From the sequence record MW394391.1: DNA of 64,000 nt, one strand, 5' to 3'. This document shows positions 3,705 to 64,000 of the stretch, in pieces. A model generated the notes under the pieces. The model worked only from the letters and a program-made list of their open reading frames with translations. It had not been told where the DNA came from and ran no database searches. The position numbers and the translations under genes are program-made. Within the stretch, counting starts at the first letter, position 1, and the number at the start of each line of letters is the position of its first letter. Source of the stretch: Klebsiella phage vB_KpM_FBKp24.

Positions 3705-4367
3705 CTAACCGTAGTAATCTACGCATTCAGTTACCCATGCGTGAAAAGCAATAGCCGCGCTCTCTGTTTGGAAAGGGATTTGATGATCGTTAATGAACAC
3801 CGTATTTTCATGGTACGCGACGACATTGACATCTTTCCAACGTACGTAAACGACCGTCCCGTGGGCGACGGTATTATCGATATAGCTAAACTTTTTCTCG
3901 TCAACCTCGTCTTCAACTTCAGAGAAGAATTGGAGGTCTTTTTCCGAGTAGGGCTCTGCATCTTCCCCAATGAAGTATGCAGAAGGAGACGGCATAGGTT
4001 TGGCGTCATCTACAATCCCATAGGTCTTCAACCAAAGATCGGCGATGATAGTTTTCGCCAGCTCTGCACATTGATCTGTAGGGTATTGTAAAATGACCTC
4101 TGCTTCTTCTAGAAATTCGAGTATCACCATCTGAGGAGATTGTAGGGAAATCTCGCGCAGTTCGCTGAAAGGGATAACTTTCAAACTTCCCCGGGTCCGA
4201 ACTGCCAAACCACCTACCCCGAGATTATTGATCAGACCAAGAAGAGAATTAAGTTCAATGTCGCTCAGTTGGATATCGTCAGGAATGTATTTATCGAGAC
4301 TAAAAGCCATTACATCACCCCTTATCAAGTGTATAAGTAAATAAGACACGGTACGGAAAAATTTCAC
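3705..4367 (-). CDS. hypothetical protein (220 aa)
   Basis: Long ORF with an acidic C-terminal half. The internal overlapping ORFs in other frames are rejected. Confidence 0.55.
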   Translation of the reverse strand: MKFFRTVSYLLIHLIRGDVMAFSLDKYIPDDIQLSDIELNSLLGLINNLGVGGLAVRTRGSLKVIPFSELREISLQSPQMVILEFLEEAEVILQYPTDQCAELAKTIIADLWLKTYGIVDDAKPMPSPSAYFIGEDAEPYSEKDLQFFSEVEDEVDEKKFSYIDNTVAHGTVVYVRWKDVNVVAYHENTVFINDHQIPFQTESAAIAFHAWVTECVDYYG

Positions 4368-4683
4368 TACTCCCGCGCCATTTCCGATTTGGGTCGTTGA
4401 GTTTTATTGTTTCGTTGATACGCTGCCGCAATAAGTTGACCTGCGTTTCCAGAATGTAATTGAAATCGGGTTGATCCCCTCCCCATATCGCCTGACCCTT
4501 GGCTTTTACATCAAGGGTAATGACGCCCTCGATAAAAATACAAGTGAAAAATATTTCAGAGCCAAGAGACCCGGTGCGCGAGCCGTAGTCTGCATCTTTC
4601 GCCAGAAAACCTTCCATGGCGCGAATTAAAAATTCGCAGGTTTCGTTATACGCTTTGGCGCGTAAAAGGGCAGTTGTTGTCAT
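4315..4683 (-). CDS. hypothetical protein (122 aa; start uncertain)
   Basis: ORF. It overlaps the upstream gene at the listed start. Confidence 0.45.
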   Translation of the reverse strand: MTTTALLRAKAYNETCEFLIRAMEGFLAKDADYGSRTGSLGSEIFFTCIFIEGVITLDVKAKGQAIWGGDQPDFNYILETQVNLLRQRINETIKLNDPNRKWRGSSEIFPYRVLFTYTLDKG

Positions 4684-5267
4684 CGTAATTCCCCCATGAC
4701 TTTTTCAAGCCAATCGTAAACCATTTGATGAGATAGATCGTATATGTTGATACAGGGAATTCCCCTGTCCAACGCAATTTTGTACGCGGACCGTGTACCG
4801 CCTTTAGGTAAACCCTCTTTGTCTTGCGGCGCGCAAGCAATGAGAAAAGAAGAGGGGCTTTCACAGTCTTCCCCTAAAATCTGGAAGACATTTCTGATAT
4901 GAAAAACTTTTTGTCCGTCAGTGAGTCTGTCCCATACCGGATGAACGTCTTTGATAATTTCACTTGCCTTATTGATATTTTCAGCAGTGTAATTAAAATG
5001 ATCGTAGCGGTCGGAAACAAAAACGTTGTGTCGTTCAAAGGTTTTCCACGGAAGGAATATTTGCGGGTCACGTATGTAGTCATTATCGCGAAGGGCTTTC
5101 TCGAAGCCTACTTGGTACGCTTGGTCTGCCCCCGGCGCTTTTCCTGACCGCATTGAATAACCCTGCTCACAAATGAAGAAACCGAGTTCCTCACAAAAGG
5201 AAAAATGTGCATGTCCAATATCAGTTGCACCAATAGTGGTGACGTAGGAGAATTCGGCGTTCTTCAT
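4680..5267 (-). CDS. Rossmann-fold SLOG/DprA-like nucleotide-binding protein (putative)
   Basis: Motif SGKAPGADQAY resembles the DprA/LOG-family SGxAxGxDxxA motif. ~195 aa. Confidence 0.35.
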   Translation of the reverse strand: MKNAEFSYVTTIGATDIGHAHFSFCEELGFFICEQGYSMRSGKAPGADQAYQVGFEKALRDNDYIRDPQIFLPWKTFERHNVFVSDRYDHFNYTAENINKASEIIKDVHPVWDRLTDGQKVFHIRNVFQILGEDCESPSSFLIACAPQDKEGLPKGGTRSAYKIALDRGIPCINIYDLSHQMVYDWLEKVMGELR

Positions 5268-22590: not shown

Positions 22591-24348
22591 TCAAATCCAT
22601 TGTGCCGCACGTTCACGGATAGTACGAATACTTTCCAGAATCTTCACATCGCCGTTCAGGTAAACTGTACGCATCGCGTCTCGCTCACTTCCGCGCAACG
22701 TTTCGTACTGCTCCCGAGTCAGATCGTCTTTCAGTGTTAGCGTTCCATCATCTTCACGATAGACAATCAGATACCCTTTTGCTGACTTCTTAGTACCGTC
22801 GTCAGTTTTAGGGTTCTTCGCGATGTTGTAGTGTTTACCGTTGACTTTACCGGCGGTTGCCTTCATGGCGATGCCCAGAGTGTCGCGAGTCACAAACTGG
22901 AACTCGAAACTCCCTACCCCAAAGACAACGTTAGAGCTACAGAATCCATTCTCTTTCAAACGGGAAAGGATCCGTGTCATGGTGTTGATGTTGATCGCAT
23001 CGCCATAGATCAAACCGACGTGCGGATCCAGCTCTTTATACCCAGCGGCATTTGTGGTTCCGCCGAAGATTTCCCAGAGTATCTGTACTGCACCCTTCTG
23101 CTCTTCGATAGAAATAGGTTTCCCTGTTTTAGTCGAATAGAATTGACCATCAACACAGAAAGATTCGAAATTACCAGACGTAGCATTTTGAATCGCGACA
23201 AATTTCGTAGCATCTAAAGCAGAAGCTCCCCCTAAAACGACCATCTCTTGGGAATTGTGATTATCGCCGTCCCAAGTGTATCCGCAGAGGATATGGTACG
23301 GATTCCCGGAATCTGGACGATAGACCAGTTTACCGTCACGCGCCATAATCGCATCTTTGTTTGCGATAGCTTTGGTGGTGATGGTGTCAAAGAAGTCATT
23401 CGTATCACTGACGAAGCTGAAAACGCCAGAAGGGTAAACTTCCGTGATCAGGCGTCGTTGGAATAATTCCTCCGCCTTCGAGAGTAACTCCGCTTCTGTG
23501 ACATTAGCGTATTCAGGGGTCGCCTTCAGCTCCTCTGCGTAAACTGCAATATTCAGACAGGTTACGCTGTGTTCTGTGGCTGGGACACTACCAGCGATTT
23601 CCGAGACCGATACGTCGCCTTCTGGATTATAGAAGCGATTCGCGGTCCAGACCGAAGGGAAGCTGTCGCTCCCTTTGAAATAGATCAGCTGACCTACTGA
23701 GCTGTTCGCATCGTCAAACATCCCCGACATTCCACGTAACGCGAAGTTATGTGCCTGGTAGTCAATGAACGCTTGCGCCGCACCCGTCTCGTTAGCGTAC
23801 TGCTCCAGTACACGGCGGAAGTGTAACGCTTTCGTTGCCAACACGCACGGTTTCCAGAGTTCGTTACTCCAGAGGTCTTCGAAGTAACCGGTCAGCCACC
23901 CAAAGCCGTCGACAGTGTTTTCAATCGTCAGGAATGGAACACGAATAGGGACTAATGACCCCTCCGGTACCGCACGAATTTCGAGCGGGATATAACCCAG
24001 TTCGTGCAGCTCTTTCAGATGCGTCGATTTCACCACGCCTTTACCCAGAACCCCGTCCATGTATTCGAGGTATTCAGCCTCTACCTGATTAAACGGCGTT
24101 TTGAAGAAGTTATCAAAACTCCCGACCAACCAGCGGAGCACTAAACGCTGCAGACCCATAAATACCGAACCGTCAAAGTCCAGTGGGGTATTGAAGTACG
24201 TGTGACTTCTGGCCGTCAGGTTTTCAAAGAAGCTGTCGGTACCCAGCGGTTGTTGGTTGATGTGCCCGGTTTTATAGGCGTCACAGAGCAGGAATACCAG
24301 CGGATCTTCGGTATAGAATTTTGGGTCTTTCAGTAAAGGATTGGTCAT
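22591..24348 (-). CDS. nadV: nicotinamide phosphoribosyltransferase family protein (NadV/Nampt-like; possibly Namat of NARP1)
   Basis: Nampt-family length and overall similarity. Adjacent and overlapping (ATGA) with a Prs-like gene. Confidence 0.8.
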   Translation of the reverse strand: MTNPLLKDPKFYTEDPLVFLLCDAYKTGHINQQPLGTDSFFENLTARSHTYFNTPLDFDGSVFMGLQRLVLRWLVGSFDNFFKTPFNQVEAEYLEYMDGVLGKGVVKSTHLKELHELGYIPLEIRAVPEGSLVPIRVPFLTIENTVDGFGWLTGYFEDLWSNELWKPCVLATKALHFRRVLEQYANETGAAQAFIDYQAHNFALRGMSGMFDDANSSVGQLIYFKGSDSFPSVWTANRFYNPEGDVSVSEIAGSVPATEHSVTCLNIAVYAEELKATPEYANVTEAELLSKAEELFQRRLITEVYPSGVFSFVSDTNDFFDTITTKAIANKDAIMARDGKLVYRPDSGNPYHILCGYTWDGDNHNSQEMVVLGGASALDATKFVAIQNATSGNFESFCVDGQFYSTKTGKPISIEEQKGAVQILWEIFGGTTNAAGYKELDPHVGLIYGDAININTMTRILSRLKENGFCSSNVVFGVGSFEFQFVTRDTLGIAMKATAGKVNGKHYNIAKNPKTDDGTKKSAKGYLIVYREDDGTLTLKDDLTREQYETLRGSERDAMRTVYLNGDVKILESIRTIRERAAQWI

Positions 24349-25235
24349 TTCACGCGTCCATCTTTAGCGGTTAAATAGGATTGGGTTGGTAACCCGTCGT
24401 CGGTGATGTTTTCCCACCACACGTTAGTCGAGAAAATCTGATCGAAGGCAGCGGAAAGCTCGCCTAGTCCTTTCGAGAAAATACCGTGAGTCACGAAGAG
24501 ACTGAGCGATTTCGGGCTCTGAGTACTGAGCTTTTTCGCCAGCTCAGTGAAGGTCCACCCACCATCGCAAATGTCATCAACAACCAACAGATTACGACCT
24601 TCGATATTGTCGTTGTCCAGTAGCGTAATGTCGAGGATATTGCCGGTTTTGGTATCGCGCTTTTTGTTTGCATAAACGATAGGCGCACCACCCAAGAGTT
24701 TCGCCAGCTCTTCAGTTTTCTTCGCAGCGCCACCGTCAGGGGAAACTAACACGACGTTATTCTCCCGAATCCAATTGGCCAGGAGATTAAAGACTATTTT
24801 GGACTGCTCCAGAACGACGAGGTTTTTGATCAGGGCCGGGGTGACGTTAGAGTGCGGATCGTGTATCAACACTCGGTCTGCTTTCAGGCTGTTGAACAGC
24901 TCTGCGAATACGCCGAGGGAGAACGATTCTCCTGCATTACACACGCGGTCTTGGCGTGCGTACGGGAAATACGGTACGGTTAAATGAAGTTCTGTTTTCG
25001 CCGTATATTTACCAATACGACGAATAGCATCGACCAGCAGCAGTAAGCGGACTGCCTCACTGGAAGATTTGATACTTCCTTCTATTTTAACGATACCAAT
25101 ATCGTGCGGAGGAAGACCGTGGCGATTAATTGCAATATGTTCTTCCCCGCCCGGGAACGTTAAGTTTTCATAAAGGACGGGTTGTCCATCGAACGTAACT
25201 TTAAACATTGTAACCCCTTTAAAAATGGTAAACAA
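24345..25235 (-). CDS. ribose-phosphate pyrophosphokinase family protein (Prs-like; possibly ADPR-PP synthetase Adps)
   Basis: VPYFPYARQDR and the PRPP-binding loop LLVVDDICDGGWT. Confidence 0.8.
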   Translation of the reverse strand: MFTIFKGVTMFKVTFDGQPVLYENLTFPGGEEHIAINRHGLPPHDIGIVKIEGSIKSSSEAVRLLLLVDAIRRIGKYTAKTELHLTVPYFPYARQDRVCNAGESFSLGVFAELFNSLKADRVLIHDPHSNVTPALIKNLVVLEQSKIVFNLLANWIRENNVVLVSPDGGAAKKTEELAKLLGGAPIVYANKKRDTKTGNILDITLLDNDNIEGRNLLVVDDICDGGWTFTELAKKLSTQSPKSLSLFVTHGIFSKGLGELSAAFDQIFSTNVWWENITDDGLPTQSYLTAKDGRVK

Positions 25236-39455: not shown

Positions 39456-40453
39456 TACACCTCCTTATTCAACCCAGAAACGATAGTGGCGCGGATCCAT
39501 TTGAATTTCAGCTTTCGTACCCCGTTGACAACAGGACCGACCCAATACCCATGCCAATGGGCACGGCGAATATGCGCTGCTCTTCCGTAAGTCTTTTGTC
39601 CTTTCTTTCGCTTCTCCATTTCTTCCAGGTAATCAAACCCTACTGGAAACTTACGATGCGCATTCAGGAAACGCAAGCTGTAGTGTTTACCCGAACGTTT
39701 CATTTTGGTTAAACGAAAGGTGTTACGGAAATCAGCAGCGTCTTGCTGGTCATATTCCTGCGCGACGAATAAAGCCACATTTAACAGCTTCGTGTACGTT
39801 TCACGATAACCGTCACGCATGAGAATACCTGCCGCCTCTTCTGCGTCAAGGTTGTGCTCCTTCGCAGCACGAACAATCGTAGGGTCAGAAGCAATGACTT
39901 CTTCCAACGTCAACCCTTCATCGAACGGAAAGAAGAGCGTTTGCGGGAATCCACCGTCGTTATACGGGTAGACGATAGTCAACCCTTCTTTCCCGCTCCA
40001 ATGTGTAACCGTGGAGAGGAAAATCCCTTCAATGAGCGGTTCCTCCGGGAGTGGGTGCTTGATAGGGCAAGCTGAAAGGTCGACGTACCCCGTCCAATGA
40101 GGAATGGTTTTCAGAACGGTTAGCGGCAATTTACCGTTGAACTCGGAGTCCAGCACATCTGCCAATAATTCAGAAGGGATTTGATATTCCGGTTTCGTGA
40201 TTTGCCAGCAGTAGGTCATACTCGCGTGCCAGAACATTTCCCGGTAGTATGGATTACTGAAATCGATTCCCTTTGGGAACCCTTTATTTTCACCCCATAT
40301 TTCCAATGGGTAAAAATACGGTGGGATTTCCCCTTTCGTTTCCGTAAGGATGCGATTGAAGAAATCTTTTGCGTCCCACGCCCTCAAGCGCGGGAGTAAG
40401 GTTTTTTCTACGGTTTCAAGAATGTTCACGGAATCTTTTCTCCATTCCTTCAT
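39455..40453 (-). CDS. hypothetical protein (332 aa)
   Basis: ORF. Confidence 0.55.
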   Translation of the reverse strand: MKEWRKDSVNILETVEKTLLPRLRAWDAKDFFNRILTETKGEIPPYFYPLEIWGENKGFPKGIDFSNPYYREMFWHASMTYCWQITKPEYQIPSELLADVLDSEFNGKLPLTVLKTIPHWTGYVDLSACPIKHPLPEEPLIEGIFLSTVTHWSGKEGLTIVYPYNDGGFPQTLFFPFDEGLTLEEVIASDPTIVRAAKEHNLDAEEAAGILMRDGYRETYTKLLNVALFVAQEYDQQDAADFRNTFRLTKMKRSGKHYSLRFLNAHRKFPVGFDYLEEMEKRKKGQKTYGRAAHIRRAHWHGYWVGPVVNGVRKLKFKWIRATIVSGLNKEV

Positions 40454-42690: not shown

Positions 42691-42716
42691 AGAGGGGCAT
42701 CTGCCCCTCTTTTATA
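42691..42716 (-). terminator. rho-independent terminator
   Basis: AGAGGGGC-ATCT-GCCCCTCT flanked by A/T runs. Confidence 0.75.
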
Positions 42717-42724
42717 GCGTTACC

Positions 42725-44029
42725 TTAGTTCAGTTTCCTGCGCTCCTGTACGACAATCTCCCCTTCTTTCAGGTAGATTTTCTTACGCGGTTTACGCAGG
42801 GCTTTCGCCAGCGAGATGTTTTCTGAAGGCGTGACTTCGAAAGCCGGGAGTCCAGCAGCAGCGCGAGCCTCAATGGCTTCCATCGGTGTAAGCAGACGGA
42901 AATGTAATGGTTCCCCCATGTAATGACGACCATCACGCATTAACGCCGGTTCGATCTGAGTTTTGTCAGTCAGGTTAGTGGTGATGATCATTTTACGTGT
43001 AATAGCGCTTCCTACGCCATCGGTTTCGTTCAGCAGTTCAGCCATCATTTCGTTACCATGGCTACGTGGTGCGATCAGAAGATCACCGTCTTCTACGATA
43101 ATCACCGGGAATGCGGGTTCTTTCCTTTTTACCCCAATTTCTACAGTGGGAAGATTAGGTTGAGTTGCCATCTGGTCAAATATTTTACGCTCTTTAAACA
43201 AAACATCGCGGCCTGCGCCGTTAATGACCTGCGCTTTCTCCATGTAATTGTCACTGAAGTTGAAGATAGAAGAAATGAAATCTTTGTATTCGATCACTTC
43301 CTTTTTCTTCACGTAGATCGGCATGAGATTCAGCGCTGTGGCCGCAGAAGAAATAGCCGTGGATTTCCCGGTACCGGGTTCGCCCATCAGGATCAGTACT
43401 GTTTCATCGGAAGCGATAAAGTCTTCGATGAGGTTAACAATCCCACCGTCAAGGTAGGGGTAAAATGCGTTGTGAGTATGGCCAGAGTGCTGAATTTCCT
43501 TTTTCTTCAACCCCAATCCCTCACCAAACATATTTTTCTCAATGACGGTCTCGTAATAGTAACGACTGTCGTCTTTTGGCGGCTCCGTCGTGTCAAGTTT
43601 GATGTTTTCACGGACAGCCGCCCATAAGGCGTCATAGAGATCTTTTGACAGAATACCAGAGAATTGCAGTAGCGTCTTCTCCCCGCCAAGCACACGAAGA
43701 AAACCGACAGGGCGATTGTAGCGGTCCAACGCGATAAACTGGTCGTCGTCGTACTGAAAGAAACCGTGTTTTTCCAGGAATACGGAAACCCACTGTGTTT
43801 CCGAGAAGTAGTGGATAGACGCGTTTATGTAGTCGCTGGAATCAAGACCAAAAATTGGTAATTGATTGGCGGCCAGAAAGTGACGCACCATATTTTTTGG
43901 AGAGAGCTCATCATTATCGTTGCCGACCAATGCAGCGAATGCATCATAAGCCTCAGCGAATGAATCAAAAACGTCATTCAGTAATTTGTGAGAGCGAGTG
44001 AGATTTGCTACAGCATTAGAATAAGACAT
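42725..44029 (-). CDS. AAA+ ATPase (BCS1-like family)
   Basis: Walker A GEPGTGKST and second region of homology ITTN..EPALMRDGR. Confidence 0.75.
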   Translation of the reverse strand: MSYSNAVANLTRSHKLLNDVFDSFAEAYDAFAALVGNDNDELSPKNMVRHFLAANQLPIFGLDSSDYINASIHYFSETQWVSVFLEKHGFFQYDDDQFIALDRYNRPVGFLRVLGGEKTLLQFSGILSKDLYDALWAAVRENIKLDTTEPPKDDSRYYYETVIEKNMFGEGLGLKKKEIQHSGHTHNAFYPYLDGGIVNLIEDFIASDETVLILMGEPGTGKSTAISSAATALNLMPIYVKKKEVIEYKDFISSIFNFSDNYMEKAQVINGAGRDVLFKERKIFDQMATQPNLPTVEIGVKRKEPAFPVIIVEDGDLLIAPRSHGNEMMAELLNETDGVGSAITRKMIITTNLTDKTQIEPALMRDGRHYMGEPLHFRLLTPMEAIEARAAAGLPAFEVTPSENISLAKALRKPRKKIYLKEGEIVVQERRKLN

Positions 44030-44085
44030 TTCGATTCCTCATTAAGTTAGTGAAAAATGAACTTTATGTTCGTTGTATCAATGCA

Positions 44086-44097
44086 GTGATATATAAG
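44086..44097 (-). promoter_or_regulatory. GTGATATATAAG motif copy
   Basis: After the terminator and ~55 nt upstream of ATG 44029. Confidence 0.35.
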
Positions 44098-44119
44098 CAA
44101 AAATATTTTCAAAATATAA

Positions 44120-44144
44120 GATGGAGAGGCAACGCCTCTCCATC
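44120..44144 (-). terminator. rho-independent terminator
   Basis: GATGGAGAGGC-AAC-GCCTCTCCATC. T-rich on the minus side. Confidence 0.7.
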
Positions 44145-44146
44145 GA

Positions 44147-46954: not shown

Positions 46955-48199
46955 TTACCCCTTCACGCAGACTATTTGTTTCAACGTAAAAAGAACTTCC
47001 ACGAGATCGTCTTGCGAACGCATTACATCGTCAATGTTCTTATACGCTTTTGGTGTTTCATCGATGACATCTTTGTCTTTGCGGCATTCGACGCCTTCAG
47101 TGTCACGTATTTGATCTTCTACTGTGAAGACACGTTTTGCTTCTCCACGGGACATCAGACGACCGGCGCCATGGGAACACGAGCAGAATGATTCTGAATT
47201 CCCTTTCCCGCGTACCACAAATGTTTTTGCACCCATCGACCCGGGAATAATAGCGAGATCGGTTGTCCTGGCTCTGACCGCCCCTTTACGGGTAACAAGG
47301 ACGTTTTGATCAAAGTGATTTTCCAGCGCAACGTAGTTATGATGACAATTGATGGCGGTCACTTTATTCTCGAAGGGTTTTTGTAAAACCTTATGCAGCG
47401 CAATCAGTGTTGCATTGAGCATAATGGCGCGGTTTACAGCCGCGAAGTCCTGTGCCCATTGCACAGCTTCTAGGTAGTCTTTGTAGTAGACCGACCCTTC
47501 CGGTAAATAAGCCAGGTCGTCATCAACTAAATGGATAAAGAAACGCGCCATTTCTTCCTTTGCTTTCTCAATGAAGAAACGACCAATTGCGTTACCTATA
47601 CCGCGAGAACCGGAATGAATTACTATCCAAAGTGAGTCATTCTGGTCGAGTGATAATTCAACAAAATGATTGCCGCTACCCAACGTTCCTGCGTGTGAAG
47701 CAAAACGGTTCGCGTTACGTAACAGAGTAGGGTATTTATCAGTGATGAACTTCAAGCGATTCTCTAATGAGACTAACTCGGCTTTAAGCTGTAGCGTTAA
47801 GTTTTGAGGGTCATTATTACCCCACGCTCCCCGGTCGTTCGGCCCACCGTTATCGGTACGGCCATGGGGGATGAGTTGTTCAATCGCGCTACGAATACCG
47901 GAAAGATCTGTTGGTAAGTCCTCGCGTTTTAACGATGTCTGTTGACCCACCAACCCGCAACCAATGTCAACACCAAGCGCAGCAGGAATAATGGCCCCCT
48001 TTGTTGCAATGACAGAACCTATTGTCGCACCCATCCCCCAGTGGACATCGGGCATGACTGCGATATGCTTGAAGATAAACGGTAAGGTAGTGAGGTTATG
48101 AAGTTGTTTTTCTGCCTGCTCTTCCACTGGGACAAATTTTGTCCAAGATTTAATGTTGACTTTGTCACCTTTAATAAAAACAATATTTGAATCTGACAT
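46955..48199 (-). CDS. rtcB: RNA-splicing ligase RtcB
   Basis: MPDVHWGMGATIGSV. NCHHNYVALENH (conserved His-rich active site). ~414 aa. Confidence 0.9.
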   Translation of the reverse strand: MSDSNIVFIKGDKVNIKSWTKFVPVEEQAEKQLHNLTTLPFIFKHIAVMPDVHWGMGATIGSVIATKGAIIPAALGVDIGCGLVGQQTSLKREDLPTDLSGIRSAIEQLIPHGRTDNGGPNDRGAWGNNDPQNLTLQLKAELVSLENRLKFITDKYPTLLRNANRFASHAGTLGSGNHFVELSLDQNDSLWIVIHSGSRGIGNAIGRFFIEKAKEEMARFFIHLVDDDLAYLPEGSVYYKDYLEAVQWAQDFAAVNRAIMLNATLIALHKVLQKPFENKVTAINCHHNYVALENHFDQNVLVTRKGAVRARTTDLAIIPGSMGAKTFVVRGKGNSESFCSCSHGAGRLMSRGEAKRVFTVEDQIRDTEGVECRKDKDVIDETPKAYKNIDDVMRSQDDLVEVLFTLKQIVCVKG

Positions 48200-51704: not shown

Positions 51705-53096
51705 CTAACCCACTTTTTTCATAGTAGAATAACTGACCGCTTCCACGGGTTTAGTGACATCATATTCCCGCAAGGCAATTTCAAAGGTCTCAGGGCTATG
51801 TTTATTTAACATGAACAACGCCTGTACTGAGGCACCCGGTAAAGGCGGGAAAGGAACTGGACTACGGGGTTCTGCATCAGGAAACGCCATTTTGAAGAAG
51901 CGGCGAATCTCTTTGTCCCCCAGAACTTCAACCTCTACACGAATGTCAATTCTACCATCCCTTAGAATTGCATCGTCCAGTTTCTCAGGGTGATTCGTGG
52001 TCAAGAACACAATGACATCATTCAGACGCATTACGCCATCTAGTGCGTTGAGGAAATCAGACAAACTCCCATTCAGGTATTCGTCCATTGCCTTGTCGTC
52101 TGATTTCGTTTCTTCTAATGTCCCCGGTACCCCGTGAGGCATTTCGATAACATTCAACCCAGACGACTCTTTTTCCTTTTCTTTTAATTCAACTATTGTC
52201 TTTTCTTTACTGCGTGCTTTCGTAAAAGAGTAAGTATCAATATCCTCGATGATGACAACACCACCCGCCGCGCGCTGGAATAATGCCTGATATTGTAATC
52301 CGCCGCTCGGTTTAAGGGTATGAATGTTACGACCTAAAGCCCCAGCCAGTGCGGAAATAAGACTGCTCTTACCAGTGCCAGGTAGCCCATAAAGTAATAC
52401 TGTAAATTTATAAGGTAATCCCCGCGAATGGTACCACTCTTTACTCCGACTAAATTCAAAGACGGGTTCAATCAATCCTTTTTGTACATTATCAGTAACA
52501 ACAATAGTGTCCAGGCTCCGCTTAGGGAGACGGCAGAGGTATTCCCAATTGGCGGTATTGTTGACAAATGCACCGACTGTATTTTTAGTGTCACTTTTCA
52601 CCATGAACGCATCCATCAGTTCGAGTATTGCCTTATGGCTTCGCCCAAACTTACTGATACTCAACCGGTATTTAGAAGCATTAGACGCATTGGCGTCTAT
52701 TTCAATGATTTTAAATACAAAGAGCGTACCGCGATAGAAAAAGAAATGAGAACCCACACCCGGACCTACCGCGCCGTCCGTCCCACTACTTTCCCCATCG
52801 ATAGTAATCGTTCTGCTCCAGTGAAACCAACTGTTCAATGAGAACCAATTAAGGAAGGCAGTGTACTGCTCTGAGTTATAATTAGTCCAGTTGGTGCTGG
52901 CAGTATTGAAAATCAAACTGGTAACGAATTGCCTTTTAACCCACTGAATCACCGCTTTGGGGGTTTTGATTAAACCCCAACCGATTGCGCCTGAGACAGC
53001 TAAAGAACTCGCAGTAACAATCGCGTTCTGTGCCATGGGGTAATCTTTAAAGTTAGACAATATATGGTCGTAAAACGACATTAGCTGTTCAAGCAT
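51705..53096 (-). CDS. AAA+ ATPase, BCS1-like (463 aa)
   Basis: LLYGLPGTGKSS. LNALDGV..VIVFLTTNHPEKLDDAILRDGRID. Confidence 0.8.
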   Translation of the reverse strand: MLEQLMSFYDHILSNFKDYPMAQNAIVTASSLAVSGAIGWGLIKTPKAVIQWVKRQFVTSLIFNTASTNWTNYNSEQYTAFLNWFSLNSWFHWSRTITIDGESSGTDGAVGPGVGSHFFFYRGTLFVFKIIEIDANASNASKYRLSISKFGRSHKAILELMDAFMVKSDTKNTVGAFVNNTANWEYLCRLPKRSLDTIVVTDNVQKGLIEPVFEFSRSKEWYHSRGLPYKFTVLLYGLPGTGKSSLISALAGALGRNIHTLKPSGGLQYQALFQRAAGGVVIIEDIDTYSFTKARSKEKTIVELKEKEKESSGLNVIEMPHGVPGTLEETKSDDKAMDEYLNGSLSDFLNALDGVMRLNDVIVFLTTNHPEKLDDAILRDGRIDIRVEVEVLGDKEIRRFFKMAFPDAEPRSPVPFPPLPGASVQALFMLNKHSPETFEIALREYDVTKPVEAVSYSTMKKVG

Positions 53097-54172: not shown

Positions 54173-54646
54173 TTAACCCTCAAACCGATAGACGATAATT
54201 TCAAAATCAGTATCCGAAAAAACCCGCTTGATATTTTCACTCACGCGCTCCCAGTCACCACCTGCTAACCCGCACCCCAATAGAGGGAAACCGACTTTTA
54301 AAACCCTCCCTTCCTTTTTCAGGATAGAGGCCATTAGTTTCAACGCCAGATAAAGAGCAGCGTAATGGGTTTTATAGTCAGGGTGCGAATGTTCGTGATG
54401 AAATTGACCACAAAGGTTGAAGCCCCATTGATTCCCATTCTTAGCAGCAGTTAATTTCCCCAAGCGTTTGTTGTAAGGGCGCTTATCGGAAAAGTAAGAT
54501 TCCGCTAACCAAGGCAATGCTTCGAATATTTTAACAGCAATACCGCTCTTAGCGACCCCAAAGCAATTGACTTGGTGGGCTATGACGTCAACTTCCTTAT
54601 TAAGAAAGGCTTCAATCAAATCCCCTTTTATTTCAGTGTATTTCAT
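54173..54646 (-). CDS. macro domain protein (ADP-ribose binding/processing)
   Basis: VDVIAHQVNCFGVAKSGIAVKI and GFPLLGCGLAGGDWE match macro-domain signature regions. Confidence 0.65.
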   Translation of the reverse strand: MKYTEIKGDLIEAFLNKEVDVIAHQVNCFGVAKSGIAVKIFEALPWLAESYFSDKRPYNKRLGKLTAAKNGNQWGFNLCGQFHHEHSHPDYKTHYAALYLALKLMASILKKEGRVLKVGFPLLGCGLAGGDWERVSENIKRVFSDTDFEIIVYRFEG

Positions 54647-55287: not shown

Positions 55288-55887
55288 TTACTCCTGCAGC
55301 AGTTTGGTTATTTCACCAATGAACTCGGAATGGTCTTCTATTTTATCTCGACCAATCTCCGAGCCCGTAATTTGATCATCAACATAACGAGAGACCAAGG
55401 CGTTGATTTTCCCAGCGGGACTGGAAAGGAATTCATCTGACTCAGCGTAATCAGCATTCCAGTTACGAATATAGAATGAAGGGTTAAAGGTCTCTGTCGT
55501 TCGGAAGTCAGGGAGTTTACCCACCATTAAAAGTTCCAACGAAGGAGAATAATGTACACCGTATTCAGTTCGACCGGTGTACTCGTTAAGTTCTGCCTTT
55601 GCCCAAATATTAAAACTGTCTATAATCCATACCCTGCTACATTTTAGAGCAATCTCCCTTTTCCAATCAGCAAGCGGGCCGTCTTGTAACATCGCTGAAA
55701 TATGCTCGTCGCTCATTATGACTTCGTAATAGTTCCGCCGGTTGAAATCTTCTAATCTCCTTTTTAAAAGGGAAAACAGATTCTGCTGCTCGGCGCTGAT
55801 AAAAGCGTCGTAATACTTATTGGTAATAAGATCTCTTTCTACTTCTGACAGCGGTTCTTTAAGAAAACCGAGTTTTGTTCTGGACAT
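55288..55887 (-). CDS. hypothetical protein (199 aa)
   Basis: ORF. Confidence 0.5.
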   Translation of the reverse strand: MSRTKLGFLKEPLSEVERDLITNKYYDAFISAEQQNLFSLLKRRLEDFNRRNYYEVIMSDEHISAMLQDGPLADWKREIALKCSRVWIIDSFNIWAKAELNEYTGRTEYGVHYSPSLELLMVGKLPDFRTTETFNPSFYIRNWNADYAESDEFLSSPAGKINALVSRYVDDQITGSEIGRDKIEDHSEFIGEITKLLQE

Positions 55888-57893: not shown

Positions 57894-58024
57894 TAGATTA
57901 CTCCACCCCAAACAATCGCCGCCGCAAATAACCACCAACCCCAGCTATGTTCCCCGTGAAAGAAACCATAGCCTCCAATACCGATTAACACTAAACTTAA
58001 AATACCGGCCATGAAATATTTCAT
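57893..58024 (-). CDS. small membrane protein (43 aa, MKYFMAGILSLVLIGIGGYGFFHGEHSWGWWLFAAAIVWGGVI)
   Basis: ATGA overlap with the TS stop. Two hydrophobic helices. Below the ORF-track cutoff. Confidence 0.4.
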   Translation of the reverse strand: MKYFMAGILSLVLIGIGGYGFFHGEHSWGWWLFAAAIVWGGVI

Positions 58025-59412
58025 ACCGACACCTCTATTTTAATCGCAGGGTGGTGTTTGTATTCCGTGAAGACGAAGTCCTCAAAGGTGAGTTCAAATA
58101 ATCCTTTCTTTGGAACGACCACCGCCGAATCGTAATAGTGCTCAGAACGAACAAAACATTCTACTGGTTTATACGGCTCACGAGTAAGCTGTAATTTCAC
58201 TTCCTCGATCTGGTTAAGGTAGATATGGACGTTAGTCAGATTACCAACCAACTGTTTTGGCGCCATCCCCAACTCATGGGCAAAGGCCAGTAACATGAAT
58301 GCGTAGAACGCCTGGTTATACGGTTCGCCGACGGGTAAGTCCACGGAACGCATTGAGTACTTAAGACTCAACCACTGCGTAGGGACATGATTCTCAGTGA
58401 GCCACTCCGCTTTACGTTCTGCCGACATCTTAGGTTGATTACAATGTTCTTCTGCGTAGCAGTCGGACATGTGATCTTCCCAGAGATCCTGGAAGTACGG
58501 GTTAGCGTTATTCGCGCACCAATCCAAACGCTCGCGCAGCGTCATCTCTTCCACGTAGAACTCTACGAGGAAATGACAGGGAGTGAGGCACGGTTTTCCG
58601 TTGATAACGTTTTCCTGCGGTGTCACCTTTACCGTCTTAGTTCGCGGTACCCCGTGACTGGCCAGAAAATCTTCGCAGTTATCGGTCTTACCGTGATCTT
58701 CCAGGCGCGGCCAGAAGATCGCATAAAGGTCCGGGCTGTGGGTTTTTAAATGTTCCCACATCTCGTCATTAGTGAGAGTAACTTCTTTCGTTTCCTCTGG
58801 CATCCAGAGTGGGTTCCACGCCGAGATGAGAATCCGGCGGGATTCTGGATTGTTCCGCAGCAGGTCTAAAACATATGCGACTTGATCAACGCCTTTCTTC
58901 TTAAGCGGGTCTTCCGAGAAGTTTCGCCAGGCGCTACCATACGGCGCATTCAGATCATTTACGTGATGTGCGATTACCGAGCGCGTACGCGGTACGTTAT
59001 GCGAATCCAACCACACGTGACCCTCTTCGACTGGGCGAATAGAGATCTTCTTACTGAAGAACTCGATGTACGCATCTTCGTTGTTTTCTTCCAGCCAACG
59101 CAAACGCTCGTAATTCTCCAACTCCACTTCCGTAGAGACGTTTTCCTTCAACCGCCACGGCGCCCAGAAATCCCCTTTCCCGTCCTCGGTGATCATCGAC
59201 TCCATATGGAGCTCACCATTAAGGATAGAACGGAACTCTCGCCAAGCCAGTTTACGAGAAACAAACTTTGTGGTGAGTAACGGGAACTCACCTTTTGATA
59301 GATCGTATTTTAATCTGGCATCAAAAATACCGATAGTCCCTGTCCCGGTACGATCGCCGCGCACTCGTCCTGTTTCCAAGACTTCCTGGAGTAATTCAAG
59401 GTATTGTTTCAT
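58021..59412 (-). CDS. thyA: thymidylate synthase homologue with three large insertions (463 aa)
   Basis: N-terminus MKQYLELLQEVL..GDRTGTGT. RRILISAWNP. The PCH nucleophile motif. YSMRSVD. PYNQAFYAF. C-terminus HHPAIK. Confidence 0.8.
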   Translation of the reverse strand: MKQYLELLQEVLETGRVRGDRTGTGTIGIFDARLKYDLSKGEFPLLTTKFVSRKLAWREFRSILNGELHMESMITEDGKGDFWAPWRLKENVSTEVELENYERLRWLEENNEDAYIEFFSKKISIRPVEEGHVWLDSHNVPRTRSVIAHHVNDLNAPYGSAWRNFSEDPLKKKGVDQVAYVLDLLRNNPESRRILISAWNPLWMPEETKEVTLTNDEMWEHLKTHSPDLYAIFWPRLEDHGKTDNCEDFLASHGVPRTKTVKVTPQENVINGKPCLTPCHFLVEFYVEEMTLRERLDWCANNANPYFQDLWEDHMSDCYAEEHCNQPKMSAERKAEWLTENHVPTQWLSLKYSMRSVDLPVGEPYNQAFYAFMLLAFAHELGMAPKQLVGNLTNVHIYLNQIEEVKLQLTREPYKPVECFVRSEHYYDSAVVVPKKGLFELTFEDFVFTEYKHHPAIKIEVSV

Positions 59413-60582: not shown

Positions 60583-60610
60583 AGAGAGGGGGAGATTCCC
60601 CTCTCTTTTC
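60583..60610 (-). terminator. rho-independent terminator
   Basis: AGAGAGGGG-GAGATT-CCCCTCTCT flanked by A/T runs. Confidence 0.7.
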
Positions 60611-61209
60611 TATTTACCCGTGCGAGTGTTTACCCAGGAAGACAAATGCTTCAGTTTGTCACGATGAGCGAGTAGCTTGCTCCAGCTTTTCTCGGGTTTG
60701 TTGGTGGAATCTCCAACTACCCTTTGATAGGCGTAGACGATTTGATCGTAAGAAACTTCAGCCGGCATCCCGCCAGTGGCCGTACAGAAGAGAGGCATGA
60801 CAACCTCAGAAATTTTCCTGTCGGGTGTCATCTTATTGAAATAAACAATTTGACAGAATGCAGCGAGGGCCACACGGTAAGCGATATCTTTTTCTTTTGC
60901 GGGGCTAGGAAAACGCATAGTCGGCGCGTAGCACAGCTGTAGATTACCGCCTAAAGAAACAGTAATAGCTTGGCCCACCGGCATTTCTTTACCCCAGAAA
61001 CGCTCGATAGCAAATTGTACTGCATCTTGAGAATCGGGAAATTTATTCGCTATAACTTTGTCGAAGCCGCCATCCATGATCCCGAATGAATTACCTGGCG
61101 TAATAACGCAGTCGTAATCTTTTCCCGGGATCAGCGCATTAAAGTCGCCTTTCTGGTAATGTTGGCGGGGTGAAAGATTTACTCTGTCAACGATCTTTAG
61201 ATTAAACAT
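60610..61209 (-). CDS. macro-domain-like protein (second copy; 199 aa)
   Basis: ITPGNSFGIMDGGFDKVI resembles the macro-domain Gly-rich ADP-ribose-binding loop. Confidence 0.45.
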   Translation of the reverse strand: MFNLKIVDRVNLSPRQHYQKGDFNALIPGKDYDCVITPGNSFGIMDGGFDKVIANKFPDSQDAVQFAIERFWGKEMPVGQAITVSLGGNLQLCYAPTMRFPSPAKEKDIAYRVALAAFCQIVYFNKMTPDRKISEVVMPLFCTATGGMPAEVSYDQIVYAYQRVVGDSTNKPEKSWSKLLAHRDKLKHLSSWVNTRTGK

Positions 61210-61213
61210 TTTA

Positions 61214-61699
61214 TTACCTTCCTAGATTAAAGAGTGATTGTAAAGGGCTCAGTAATGGTTTCTTGTAGTTTCGATAGACGATCTCGATTGATAACTTTGC
61301 TCCGGATTTGGAGGTCAAAAGAAGTACATCTGAAATGTATCGGGTTTTCAGGAGCTTCTTCTTCTGATAAATCTCAAGAACTTTCTCGGCTTTCTCGTCG
61401 ATAAGGTAATCGCTATCTAGCCTTACTCGAATTTCTTTCAGTGCATTAGTTCGAATCGCAAGTTGAAAGTCGATAGAGAGTCGAGGCGCTGTCACCTTGA
61501 CAGACCCTTTCTCCCCGATACCGTTCTTCAACTTCTCATGGAAAGCAACGCTGGCTGATTTGTCCCGTAAATATTCGGTGACTTCGTCTATCGTCTTGGA
61601 GATAACAGCGATCAGTGCGATCTCTAGACTTTGGGGTTCTTCTTCCACCGGTTCTTCAAGTGATTGAAACAATTTAGCAAGTGGGTCGGCTGAGGTCAT
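61214..61699 (-). CDS. hypothetical protein (161 aa)
   Basis: ORF. Confidence 0.5.
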   Translation of the reverse strand: MTSADPLAKLFQSLEEPVEEEPQSLEIALIAVISKTIDEVTEYLRDKSASVAFHEKLKNGIGEKGSVKVTAPRLSIDFQLAIRTNALKEIRVRLDSDYLIDEKAEKVLEIYQKKKLLKTRYISDVLLLTSKSGAKLSIEIVYRNYKKPLLSPLQSLFNLGR

Positions 61700-61722
61700 T
61701 TTTTACTCCTACTTTTATCAGA

Positions 61723-62133
61723 TCAAATCCAACGATCGTTAGGGCGAATAAAGGTTTGGAAAACGCCGTACCACCAACCGTCGTCTTTCAAAACGGGTTG
61801 GAAGTAGGCAGAACGCCGCATTGACCCGACCTGATTTTTCCCTGCAGCAATAATATTCTTGTACCAAATAGTGCGTAGTACTGCACTAGGAAGCTGGAAT
61901 TTCCCGCCCACTAAAGGACGGTCGTAATTTTCCCCTACACGAAAACGAAACCTACCATTGTTAGGCTCGTATTCAAAGTCGATAGTATTGTTTTCCCCCT
62001 CTTCTAATCCCCAGAGAAATGTCTTTGATAATGAACAGTCCGAATCGCGCGACAGTCGAATGTAAGGTACTGTATAGACTTGCTCACGCGGAGTAGAGGT
62101 AGTGGGAGTATATGGTATCTTGATAAAAGGCAT
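61723..62133 (-). CDS. hypothetical protein, paralogue of 59636..60031 (136 aa)
   Basis: Conserved block IDFEYEPNNGRFRFRVGENYDRPLVGGKFQLP. Confidence 0.5.
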   Translation of the reverse strand: MPFIKIPYTPTTSTPREQVYTVPYIRLSRDSDCSLSKTFLWGLEEGENNTIDFEYEPNNGRFRFRVGENYDRPLVGGKFQLPSAVLRTIWYKNIIAAGKNQVGSMRRSAYFQPVLKDDGWWYGVFQTFIRPNDRWI

Positions 62134-62192: not shown

Positions 62193-62570
62193 TTAGCAGA
62201 CGATCGAATCAACGAACAGTGCGGTATTGCTGCGAGTCGGCTGAATTTGCTTTTCGATGGTCGGGAAGAATTTACCGGCGGCGTTAATGAAAAGAAACGC
62301 GGTGTCTTTCTCGCCGCGACCTACTTTTTCGGCCGATAGAACACTAACCGGGAAAGGAACAACTTTGACTTTATCAATCACTGCCGGACCAAGGTAAAGC
62401 TCGATCATTTCCGCAAACTTTTTACGGGTCGCTGGATCACCGTAAACTTTAATTGTTTTCCCTTTTACCAGGTTATTGAGAATGAACGCTGCGTAGTGAA
62501 GCAGCGCTGTATTGTTGAAAGTACCTGTAACGCGGATCGATTGAATTCGTTTCATTTCGTGAACACCCAA
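62193..62570 (-). CDS. hypothetical protein (125 aa)
   Basis: ORF. Confidence 0.45.
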   Translation of the reverse strand: MGVHEMKRIQSIRVTGTFNNTALLHYAAFILNNLVKGKTIKVYGDPATRKKFAEMIELYLGPAVIDKVKVVPFPVSVLSAEKVGRGEKDTAFLFINAAGKFFPTIEKQIQPTRSNTALFVDSIVC

Positions 62571-63109
62571 TAAACACTGTAGAAGTTGATCGCATGAATA
62601 CCGGAAGAGAGGGTATCAAGTTCCCCTAGGTCATCAGGGTCAATAAGGTTGACCTTTAACCCTGTCGCCAACAAACGTTTCAGATTGTAAGCCACGGCTG
62701 TCTGAGGAATCCGAAACGTAATCGCTTGTTGGTTTCTGAAGTGACTAACCAAATCGCGAGGGGCATCACCTAAACGTTCTAGATACTTAGCGAACGTTTC
62801 GCCATCTAACCCGTCTAACGACCACTGCCAAACGACACCGTCTGCCGCAACGACAGCCACTCCTTTATAACGATACGGTTTTTGGTATTCTCCCCATTTG
62901 ATACTCTCTGGCTGATAGCAAGAATTGTAATCTGTGATCCTCAGTTCTTCGCCAGGTTCTGCTTCATCGACCATTTCAGCAAAAGCGGGAAGGAGAATAG
63001 TCTCACCGGCAGCGTTTTTAGCATGGGCGACAATTTCACCCTCAGTGAGCCCATAAGCATCAGCTGCGTAAACCCCACGTTCAAACTTCAATTTTATCTG
63101 CTGAGTCAT
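62552..63109 (-). CDS. hypothetical protein (185 aa)
   Basis: ORF with a 4-nt overlap with the Tpt1 gene. Confidence 0.5.
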   Translation of the reverse strand: MTQQIKLKFERGVYAADAYGLTEGEIVAHAKNAAGETILLPAFAEMVDEAEPGEELRITDYNSCYQPESIKWGEYQKPYRYKGVAVVAADGVVWQWSLDGLDGETFAKYLERLGDAPRDLVSHFRNQQAITFRIPQTAVAYNLKRLLATGLKVNLIDPDDLGELDTLSSGIHAINFYSVYWVFTK

Positions 63110-63675
63110 TCTTTCTTTTCCTCTATTTTAAAACAGCCAACCGGAACGTGCCTGACTAACCAGACCCCGTTCAACGCTTTGTAGAACACGTAGCCGAGCT
63201 CAATTAATTTCTCGGCATCTACGCTCAGTACCACGAGAGAGCCTTTCTTAGCGTACCGTAAACCCACTAACCGCGCCGTCTCAATGTGATCGGTCAAATG
63301 GACAAACTGACGAGATTGCGGATTGAGTCCGTTCTCAAAAATGCTCTCTAAGTTACCCGATGCGGTACCGTGGTACAAAACCCTAGGAGGGGTCTCTTTG
63401 CTAAAAGACATTTCATTCACTGGGAAAGAATGCCCTTGTACCGCTCTGATTGCCGAAAGGTCTTTGGAAAGACTGAATCGTTTCTTGTCGTCTGTTTCAA
63501 CGACGTACATTAACTCCTCTAAACTGACCTCTTTTTTCTGCTCACTGAAAGCAGCAATAAGATCGTCGAGTTTTACATATCCAAATTCGTCCGGCGTTAA
63601 TTTCAATGCCTGAGGGCGATGACGTAAAACAAAACAGAGCGTTTTAGACAGTTTAATGGGGTCATTCATTAGCAT
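63106..63675 (-). CDS. kptA: RNA 2'-phosphotransferase Tpt1/KptA
   Basis: LSKTLCFVLRHRP. IRAVQGHS. LYHGT. FVHLT. NGVWL. ~190 aa, typical of bacterial KptA. Confidence 0.8.
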   Translation of the reverse strand: MLMNDPIKLSKTLCFVLRHRPQALKLTPDEFGYVKLDDLIAAFSEQKKEVSLEELMYVVETDDKKRFSLSKDLSAIRAVQGHSFPVNEMSFSKETPPRVLYHGTASGNLESIFENGLNPQSRQFVHLTDHIETARLVGLRYAKKGSLVVLSVDAEKLIELGYVFYKALNGVWLVRHVPVGCFKIEEKKE

Positions 63676-63937
63676 GAATACTCTTGTTAATGTAAATATT
63701 CCACCCCGGACTCACCCATACTGGAATTTTAAAACCTAAATGGTCTTCTTCTCGATAACCCCAATCTTCCCTTTTAGTAAATGAAAAGAAACGATCGCGA
63801 TCCGCTCTCAACTTATCGTAATAGGCAAACATTTTGTGATCAATTGCCTCTGCTTTATATTTCGCATAGAGCCATTTGCGATACTGCGCTTCCATTTCAT
63901 TGTATTCCACCGGCTCATACCCAGAAAGAATCGTCAC
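63662..63937 (-). CDS. hypothetical protein (91 aa)
   Basis: ORF. Confidence 0.45.
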   Translation of the reverse strand: MTILSGYEPVEYNEMEAQYRKWLYAKYKAEAIDHKMFAYYDKLRADRDRFFSFTKREDWGYREEDHLGFKIPVWVSPGWNIYINKSIHANE

Positions 63938-64000
63938 ACCACCAGTAACATTTTCGGGGTAGCACTGGAGTCCATCCCAAATAGCGGGAAGGGGGATAAA

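Follow-up and report, generated by a model that had tools for sequence, protein, structure and literature searches.

The 64,000-nucleotide (nt) window analyzed here comes from the 307 kb genome of Klebsiella phage vB_KpM_FBKp24 (MW394391.1) and carries, near one end, a gene for an NAD+-dependent RNA 2'-phosphotransferase, tpt1 (also known as kptA). In the reaction catalyzed by Tpt1 enzymes, the 2'-phosphate of an RNA attacks C1'' of NAD+, nicotinamide is released, and a 2'-phospho-ADP-ribosyl-RNA intermediate is formed. The first-pass annotation of the window had assigned the gene to this family, and comparison with sequence profiles confirms, with matches far beyond chance, that the open reading frame (ORF), whose boundaries had been given exactly, encodes a full-length and intact Tpt1/KptA family member. 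The Pfam model PTS_2-RNA (PF01885) matches with an E value of 2.7e-42 and 145.3 bits against a gathering cutoff of 26, with residues 7-175 covering profile positions 4-176 of 177, and PHROG 5470 ("RNA 2'-phosphotransferase") matches at 2.3e-56. In a search of PDB sequences, 13 sequences of solved Tpt1 enzymes match, led by the one from Runella slithyformis (7kw8; 8.8e-41 over residues 7-183) and including 8tfi, 9ld4, 6e3a, 1wfx, and 7yw4; by sequence comparison, the homology to the solved enzymes extends across both lobes of the fold. All 4 NCBIfam KptA equivalog models match as well, and all 4 do so below their naming cutoff (the highest, NF002014, scores 196.7 against 239). These cutoffs are naming thresholds for specific bacterial subfamilies and not a property that defines the family, so the scores mark the phage protein as a diverged lineage rather than as a non-member. 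RefSeq places the start at Met3 (63669), which gives a protein of 187 amino acids (aa) (63106..63669; YP_010298896.1) named "RNA 2'-phosphotransferase [Klebsiella phage vB_KpM_FBKp24]". For several other products of the window, too, the RefSeq protein of this phage is 100% identical.

Mutagenesis of the Runella enzyme has identified 4 essential residues: R16, H17, R64, and R119 (PMC6097658). In the HMMER alignment these correspond to R18, H19, R66, and R122 of the phage protein; in Escherichia coli KptA the tetrad is R21, H22, R69, and R125. The Arg-His-Arg-Arg tetrad, which the first-pass annotation had proposed to verify by alignment, is therefore intact, and all 4 residues are invariant in an alignment of 35 phage and cellular homologs. 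Other positions invariant in the same 35 sequences are K64, R77, H82-S83, H102-G103-T104, V125-H126-L127, and R140. The third member of the tetrad is R66 of the KKRF motif, and R77, in IRAVQGHS, is a separate invariant arginine. Judging from this intact active site and from the strong purifying selection described below, the phage Tpt1 is almost certainly catalytically active. It is about 42-50% identical to its cellular homologs and resembles the bacterial enzymes (Runella 7kw8 and E. coli KptA) in length, two-lobe layout, the tetrad, and the other invariant positions. It differs from them in being phage encoded and diverged, and in standing inside a phage-specific module with an HD-type phosphodiesterase and a macro-domain protein of probable Macro-2 type. 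Bacterial KptA likewise has no known endogenous route that makes 2'-phosphate junctions, a question that it has in common with the phage enzyme. What Tpt1/KptA does without a ligase that leaves a 2'-phosphate is a long-standing puzzle (PMC6573784, PMC6097658), and a lytic jumbo phage with a constrained tpt1 in a compact module offers a convenient genetic system for finding a natural substrate.

Homologs of Tpt1 are present in 96 of 50,697 phage records, mainly in jumbo phages of Erwinia, Dickeya, and Klebsiella, and also in Clostridioides difficile phiCD211 and Bacillus phage G; most of them are already annotated. Besides the gene itself, which already carries its name in RefSeq, the class of phage systems that combine KptA with Macro domains is already known from surveys. 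Iyer, Anantharaman, Krishnan, Burroughs, and Aravind described jumbo-phage KptA in 2021 as part of an NAD+-dependent RNA repair with 2H and Macro domains (PMC7824862), and Iyer, Burroughs, Anantharaman, and Aravind presented the same in silico scheme of KptA with 2H/Macro in 2022 (PMC9503650); the role proposed in both papers is the removal of 2'-phosphates arising from cyclic-phosphate ends. The phage record closest to the window is vB_KpM_Centimanus (93% nucleotide identity), where kptA is annotated and Tpt1 is 98.4% identical at the amino acid level. Another relative, MJ359, encodes a nuclear shell protein, a PhuZ tubulin, and split RNA polymerase subunits, which marks the group as a clade of nucleus-forming jumbo phages.

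The related set comprises 11 records representing 10 distinct genomes, and Tpt1 is carried by all 11 records. The ratio of nonsynonymous to synonymous substitution rates (dN/dS) of tpt1 is 0.05-0.08 in every informative comparison, including those between genomes without RtcB, and lies in the same range as that of thymidylate synthase (0.04-0.07). The gene is thus under strong purifying selection, matching that on thymidylate synthase. The notion that tpt1 is a decaying remnant left behind after the loss of a ligase was considered and rejected on the strength of these dN/dS values and the intact tetrad.

That the genome also encodes RtcB had been stated in the first-pass annotation and is correct: the predicted 3'-phosphate/5'-OH RNA ligase matches PF01139 at full length (profile positions 1-426 of 426) with 402.3 bits and an E value of 4.1e-120. 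In the further statement that tpt1 lies near rtcB, "near" stands for a distance of 14.9 kb. RtcB ligation leaves no 2'-phosphate and Tpt1 is unneeded downstream of it, a premise of the earlier interpretation that is established (PMC6097658). Comparison with Centimanus shows a precise indel of one gene, rtcB (window 46964-48192), and only 3 of the 11 related records carry this gene (KpSz_1, KpZh_1, and KpZh_LPS_45; 89.9% identity). Given this indel, the presence of RtcB in 3/11 records versus 11/11 for Tpt1, and the constraint on tpt1 in members without RtcB, the two genes are evolutionarily uncoupled in the clade. In the same collection of phage records, RtcB is found in 706 and Tpt1 in 96; Erwinia phages account for 17 of the former and 61 of the latter. 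RtcB behaves like an accessory gene of the "moron" type.

The surroundings of tpt1 are conserved well beyond the closest relatives (Table 1). Sister Tpt1 orthologs with 53-62% identity are found on metagenomic contigs of up to 264 kb, and 4 sister lineages (L013/L014, L015, L016, and L017) were compared with the window by local tblastn. The module that emerges begins with the gene for an HD-type phosphohydrolase, followed by a 172-aa ORF and then by one or two small ORFs; next come tpt1, a Macro-2 gene, and, further downstream, thymidylate synthase. The Macro-2 gene is linked to tpt1 in 5 diverged lineages, namely the window's clade and the 4 sister lineages: it directly adjoins tpt1 in L013 and L016 and is less than 2 kb away in L015, L017, and the window. 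The order from tpt1 to thymidylate synthase is the same in L013, L014, L015, and L017. The 172-aa ORF, with orthologs in L001 (the Centimanus locus), L002, L007, L015, L016, and L017, immediately precedes tpt1 in the window's clade, and in L016 and L017 it precedes the HD gene; its HD-type phosphodiesterase partner is encoded just past the end of the window. The two are separate genes in most lineages (e.g., L001 22140-23364), and in L015 they are fused into one 398-aa protein (4009-5205), a "Rosetta-stone" arrangement which indicates that the HD enzyme and the 172-aa protein work together. The H..HD..D residues are retained throughout the HD family, whose profile finds class-I cyclic-nucleotide phosphodiesterases with an E value near 2e-5. 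The 172-aa family has no Pfam relative and no match in a profile search of PDB sequences, and a homolog search with the L015 fusion protein returned nothing; it is a domain without detectable relatives outside FBKp24-like phages.

Table 1. Positions of tpt1, its module, and other genes discussed in the text, in window coordinates
Feature	Coordinates	Strand	Remarks
tpt1/kptA, NAD+-dependent RNA 2'-phosphotransferase	63106..63675	minus	189 aa from the first ATG
172-aa ORF, C-terminal part, running off the window	63662..64000	minus	overlaps the start of tpt1 by 14 nt
185-aa ORF, function unassigned	62552..63109	minus	ATG overlaps the tpt1 stop (ATGA)
125-aa ORF, PHROG 12807 (function unknown), conserved module member	62193..62570	minus	homolog at L015 8869-9270
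Probable Macro-2 (YMR087W-type) macro protein, putative ADP-ribose-1''-phosphate phosphatase	60610..61209	minus	199 aa; Pfam, PDB, PHROG
Thymidylate synthase (expanded), synteny anchor downstream of the tpt1 module	58021..59412	minus	463 aa; Pfam PF00303, 9.6e-61
TARG1/OARD1-like macro protein	54173..54646	minus	157 aa; Pfam Macro, PDB
RtcB 3'-phosphate/5'-OH RNA ligase, accessory gene in the clade	46955..48199	minus	414 aa; Pfam PF01139
PRPP-synthetase-like gene	24345..25235	minus	Pfam; overlaps the NAMPT-like gene
NAMPT-like gene	22591..24348	minus	Pfam; with the PRPP-synthetase-like gene, a NARP1-like NAD+ reconstitution pair

The first-pass annotation had described tpt1 as lying next to two macro-domain genes. 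Two candidates are indeed present, both with support from PDB matches, but neither is adjacent. The closer of the two, here called the Macro-2 gene after its probable type, follows tpt1 at a distance of 1.9 kb, and four ORFs lie in between. Its product scores 26.4 bits against Pfam Macro_2 (cutoff 27), with a match covering only 42 profile positions, and its sole PDB relative is yeast YMR087W (1njr; 1.7e-6 over residues 20-172). In the ADP-ribose-binding loop (PGNSxG..GGFD), PGNSFGIMDGGFDK of the phage protein aligns with PGNSYGYLGGGFDK of 1njr. PHROG 2613 matches at 1.5e-31, and homologs in Gifsy-1, SEN4/5, and phiRSL1 are annotated as macro or Appr-1-p processing proteins. The Macro-2 orthologs adjoining or near tpt1 in L013, L015, L016, and L017 are 47-49% identical to it. 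In RefSeq and in MJ359 the gene is called a "tail protein", a label inherited from PHROG 14717 that is probably a mis-annotation. Within the Macro-2 clade, YMR087W alone has been studied: it turns ADP-ribose-1''-phosphate into ADP-ribose, a step in the pathway that handles the by-product of tRNA splicing, and it does not de-MARylate (PMC6397177). The second macro gene, 8.5 kb from tpt1, encodes a TARG1-like protein that scores 19.1 bits against Pfam Macro (cutoff 22), aligns at full length with TARG1 (5e-7) and with bacterial macro domains from the PDB, and is called a macro-domain protein by UniRef and NCBI. With homologs in 1481 phage records, this protein is not specific to Tpt1.

Two small ORFs follow tpt1 in the window. 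The 185-aa ORF has homologs confined to the clade (11 proteins, at least 65% identity) and is constrained, with a dN/dS of 0.13 against Centimanus. Nothing in Pfam, PHROG, or NCBIfam matches it, and AlphaFold2 run on the 11-sequence clade alignment gave a mean pLDDT of 38 and no usable fold. By tblastn, a counterpart is missing from L013-L017, and the 185-aa ORF is therefore not a core part of the module. The homolog of the 125-aa ORF in L015 stands between tpt1 and the macro gene. The expanded thymidylate synthase aligns with the 266-position Pfam model in two stretches that lie apart, a sign of large insertions. The enzyme is conserved and strongly constrained in the clade; its L017 ortholog carries an intein with a LAGLIDADG domain instead.

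In the sister lineages, further RNA-repair genes accompany tpt1. A nucleotidyltransferase of the RlaP family (PF10127), named for its association with RNA ligases, is present in L013, L014, L015, and L017, and L015 and L017 encode a protein of 326-338 aa that scores 26.4 bits against Pfam RNA_ligase (PF09414; cutoff 27). The motifs PKIHGxNG, GEW, EGxVW, and FKVKGxKH of this protein are what we take to be those of Rnl2-type ligases, and in L017 its gene stands immediately after tpt1. By tblastn, the window, the Centimanus locus (L001), and the MJ359 genome as a whole contain no homolog of RlaP or of the Rnl2-like ligase.

The phage has several routes of NAD+ supply, which together amount to a heavy investment. 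A PRPP-synthetase-like and a NAMPT-like gene overlap in the window and resemble a NARP1-type pair, with the proviso that Pfam cannot separate Adps/Namat from Prs/Nampt, and relatives of the phage carry NadR/NMNAT and PnuC genes about 8-10 kb upstream of tpt1, a position beyond the end of the window. As described in a preprint, NARP1 rebuilds NAD+ from ADP-ribose and nicotinamide (bioRxiv 10.64898/2026.01.28.702374). Tpt1 releases nicotinamide and Macro-2 would yield ADP-ribose, and both products could feed the NARP1-like pair. The arrangement recalls NARP1-AP (Adps, Adpp, and Namat), in that one genome likewise combines a Prs-like/NAMPT-like pair with macro genes of the ADPR-1''-P-phosphatase type. 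It differs in that the macro genes lie outside the NARP1 operon, 29 and 35 kb from the pair rather than within two genes of it as NARP1-AP is defined, that they resemble Macro-2 and TARG1 instead of Poa1p, and that Macro-2 tracks tpt1.

The best overall explanation of this locus, to which we assign a probability of roughly 60%, is that it encodes a canonical Tpt1 acting in an RNA-repair and ADP-ribose module of which RtcB is not a partner. Such a module would clean RNA ends or junctions bearing 2'-phosphates, most likely in tRNA, after attack by metal-independent host RNases, and would detoxify or recycle the ADP-ribose by-product. The HD enzyme may open a 2',3'- or a 1'',2''-cyclic phosphate, and Macro-2 would act on ADP-ribose-1''-phosphate, the by-product of the canonical two-step Tpt1 reaction. 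Tpt1 itself may act on a terminal 2'-phosphate that the HD enzyme or a host phosphodiesterase leaves behind (a subset of Tpt1 enzymes removes terminal 2'- and 3'-phosphates; PMC6573784), on a junction made by a host enzyme, or on a substrate of some other kind. RtcB would then be an independently acquired accessory ligase. The HD and Macro-2 partners, together with the ligase and RlaP of the sister lineages, favor ordinary 2'-phosphate removal in an RNA-repair cassette, as Iyer and colleagues proposed. The first-pass annotation had taken the macro genes and rtcB nearby to suggest the opposite, a non-canonical role; that step is not supported, in view of the uncoupling of RtcB, the probable Macro-2 type of the linked macro gene, and the presence of an Rnl2-like ligase in the modules of two sister lineages. 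To the published scheme the present analysis adds the uncoupling of RtcB and tpt1, the probable assignment of the linked macro protein to the Appr-1''-phosphatase type, the ligase near tpt1 in sister lineages, and the insert-bearing tRNA-like genes described below.

Known systems resemble the locus in some respects and differ from it in others. Like the KptA-2H-Macro systems of Iyer and colleagues, the locus brings together KptA, a Macro domain, and RNA-repair genes in a jumbo phage. In contrast to them, no 2H gene was detected in the window, and an HD-type phosphodiesterase, which might be substituting for the 2H phosphoesterase, is the constant neighbor; the clade also lacks the ATP-dependent ligase and RlaP of its sister lineages, and its RtcB is accessory and unlinked. 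With the yeast pathway for tRNA-splicing by-products (Trl1 to Tpt1 to Cpd1 to Poa1p/YMR087W) the phage has in common Tpt1 and a YMR087W-type Macro-2, here in synteny. Neither the Trl1-type ligase nor the 2H enzyme Cpd1 of that pathway was detected for the phage, however, and its host is a bacterium, without protein-spliced tRNA introns. Healing and sealing of the fungal or plant type (Trl1/AtRNL with Tpt1) requires a ligase that bears cyclic phosphodiesterase and kinase activities and leaves a 2'-phosphate, and none was detected for the phage.

Several observations weigh against this explanation. A Pfam search of the 104 ORFs in the window (E ≤ 0.001) found no RNA_lig_T4_1, tRNA_lig_CPD, tRNA_lig_kinase, or 2H family member, a search that divergent proteins could escape, and no clear polynucleotide kinase. 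PHROG-based annotation of the whole MJ359 genome lists no RNA ligase. Altogether, 7 of the 10 distinct relatives are without any recognizable phage RNA ligase, so that a role coupled to ligation would need a host enzyme, or else the role would have to be independent of ligation. The Runella Tpt1, the closest solved homolog, is poor at removing terminal 2'-phosphates (PMC6573784), which weakens the version in which Tpt1 heals ends. The Macro-2 gene is absent from Centimanus, where the segment is replaced. The Tpt1 loci of Erwinia phage RAY, Dickeya phage AD1, and C. difficile phiCD211 share no neighbor with the module (7 kb on each side, tblastn E < 0.01), which marks the module as particular to FBKp24-like phages in the wider sense, and literature searches turned up no experimental study of any phage Tpt1. 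One MJ359 gene is annotated as a polynucleotide kinase; Pfam gives it only a weak DUF2608 match, and the kinase is not confirmed.

The same set of genes can be read in other ways. If the main activity of Tpt1 were to ADP-ribosylate RNA or DNA at 5'-phosphate ends without going beyond the first step, it would protect or mark nucleic acids of phage or host, and the TARG1-like macro protein could serve as the eraser. According to PMC11833690, 5'-phospho-ADP-ribosyl capping is a documented activity of Tpt1/KptA that TARG1-type and other macro domains can reverse, with a physiological relevance that is unclear even in cells. A TARG1-like gene is present in the window and most clade members have no recognizable phage RNA ligase, both of which would suit such a role, but this macro gene, with 1481 phage records to the 96 of Tpt1, is not linked to tpt1. 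The macro gene that is syntenic with tpt1 is instead probably a Macro-2, a type reported not to de-MARylate, which acts on a by-product of the complete reaction; because capping stalls after the first step and yields no ADP-ribose-1''-phosphate, the context argues against it. The enzyme also keeps all 4 residues on which the two reaction steps depend, and the sister lineages place tpt1 with an RNA ligase and RlaP in an RNA-repair context, which leaves capping as the main function quite improbable. Rather unlikely, in our estimation, is a counter-defense role independent of ligation, in which Tpt1 would erase 2'-phosphate marks or dead-end 2'-phosphate termini from phage or host RNAs and so restore their function or usable ends. 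The phosphates could be internal ones installed by the host, or ends that host phosphodiesterases make from cyclic ends. The retention of tpt1 under strong selection in genomes without a recognizable phage RNA ligase speaks for this, as do the HD phosphodiesterase as constant neighbor and the activity of a subset of Tpt1 enzymes on terminal 2'- and 3'-phosphates (PMC6573784); against it, the closest solved homolog is without terminal phosphatase activity (PMC6573784), and literature searches turned up no enterobacterial defense system that installs RNA 2'-phosphates. It overlaps with RNA repair by a canonical Tpt1 and differs only in dispensing with ligation. A third possibility detaches tpt1 from its surroundings: the macro and NAD+ genes would form an NAD+-reconstitution counter-defense (NARP1 with an ADPR-1''-P phosphatase, directed against RES-type depletion), and tpt1 would merely share an early or accessory array with them. 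A precedent exists in the phage macro phosphatase Adpp (Poa1p-like), which dephosphorylates ADPR-1P, feeds NARP1, and thereby defeats the aRES defense (bioRxiv 10.64898/2026.01.28.702374), and both the NARP1-like pair in the window and the absence of Macro-2 from Centimanus, where tpt1 is kept, are compatible with it. The preprint, however, counted macro genes within two genes of NARP1, and those of the window are 29 and 35 kb away; it is tpt1 that Macro-2 follows instead, adjoining it or standing within 2 kb in L013, L015, L016, L017, and the window. We consider this separation of the two gene sets unlikely.

Another alternative would connect Tpt1, acting with RtcB or a host ligase, to the protein-catalyzed maturation of two phage tRNA-like genes. 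Known from relatives only and located outside the window, these lie in the tRNA cluster of MJ359, are 102 nt (L004 38954-39055) and 108 nt (39571-39678) long, and are labeled tRNA-OTHER in GenBank; Centimanus has unannotated counterparts (L012 2766-2867 and 2958-3065) whose differences are restricted to loops or restore pairs. At least 98% conserved in 10 related records (9 distinct genomes), and with Centimanus present in 11 records (10 genomes), both have an encoded CCA at the end and the same kind of spacing as the neighboring genes. When introns are allowed, ARAGORN calls the first as Ser(gct) and the second as Pro(tgg), with inserts of 23 and 33 nt, respectively, in the anticodon loop; both inserts are GC-rich hairpins. 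The Rfam tRNA model detects the first element (38.9 bits) and not the second, while folding gives the second a cloverleaf with an extended anticodon arm and leaves the first ambiguous. The position in the tRNA cluster, the encoded CCA, and the conservation in all relatives would agree with splicing, and excision of the 33-nt insert would give a canonical Pro(UGG) loop, AUUGGGA. The "spliced" loop of the first element, on the other hand, departs from the standard form (U37 in a Ser GCU that lacks a long variable arm), neither element has a canonical bulge-helix-bulge motif, IMG/VR contains no insert-free allele, and Pfam found no splicing endonuclease among the window ORFs. Tpt1 would in any case be needed only with a ligase that leaves a 2'-phosphate, and none was found. 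We know of no protein-catalyzed tRNA cleavage and religation of this kind in bacteriophages. A part for Tpt1 in maturing these RNAs is thus very improbable, and it would be equally surprising if they were genuine short-intron pre-tRNAs, with Tpt1 (and RtcB or a host ligase) as the remnant of a phage pathway of that sort; the RNAs may be spliced, act as decoys, or have another purpose, and a tie to Tpt1 or RtcB is speculation.

Returning to the window, its long array of small minus-strand genes is a site of frequent gene turnover. Two segments are replaced by unrelated sequence in Centimanus: 55296-55887, which holds a 199-aa ORF, and 60634-61728, which holds the Macro-2 gene and a 161-aa ORF. 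The window also contains two AAA+ ATPase genes (in the regions 42695-44146 and 51705-53096). Of these, the gene at 51705..53096 encodes a BCS1-type domain at the N-terminus, and the other, at 42725..44029, stands in a segment that is absent from Centimanus.

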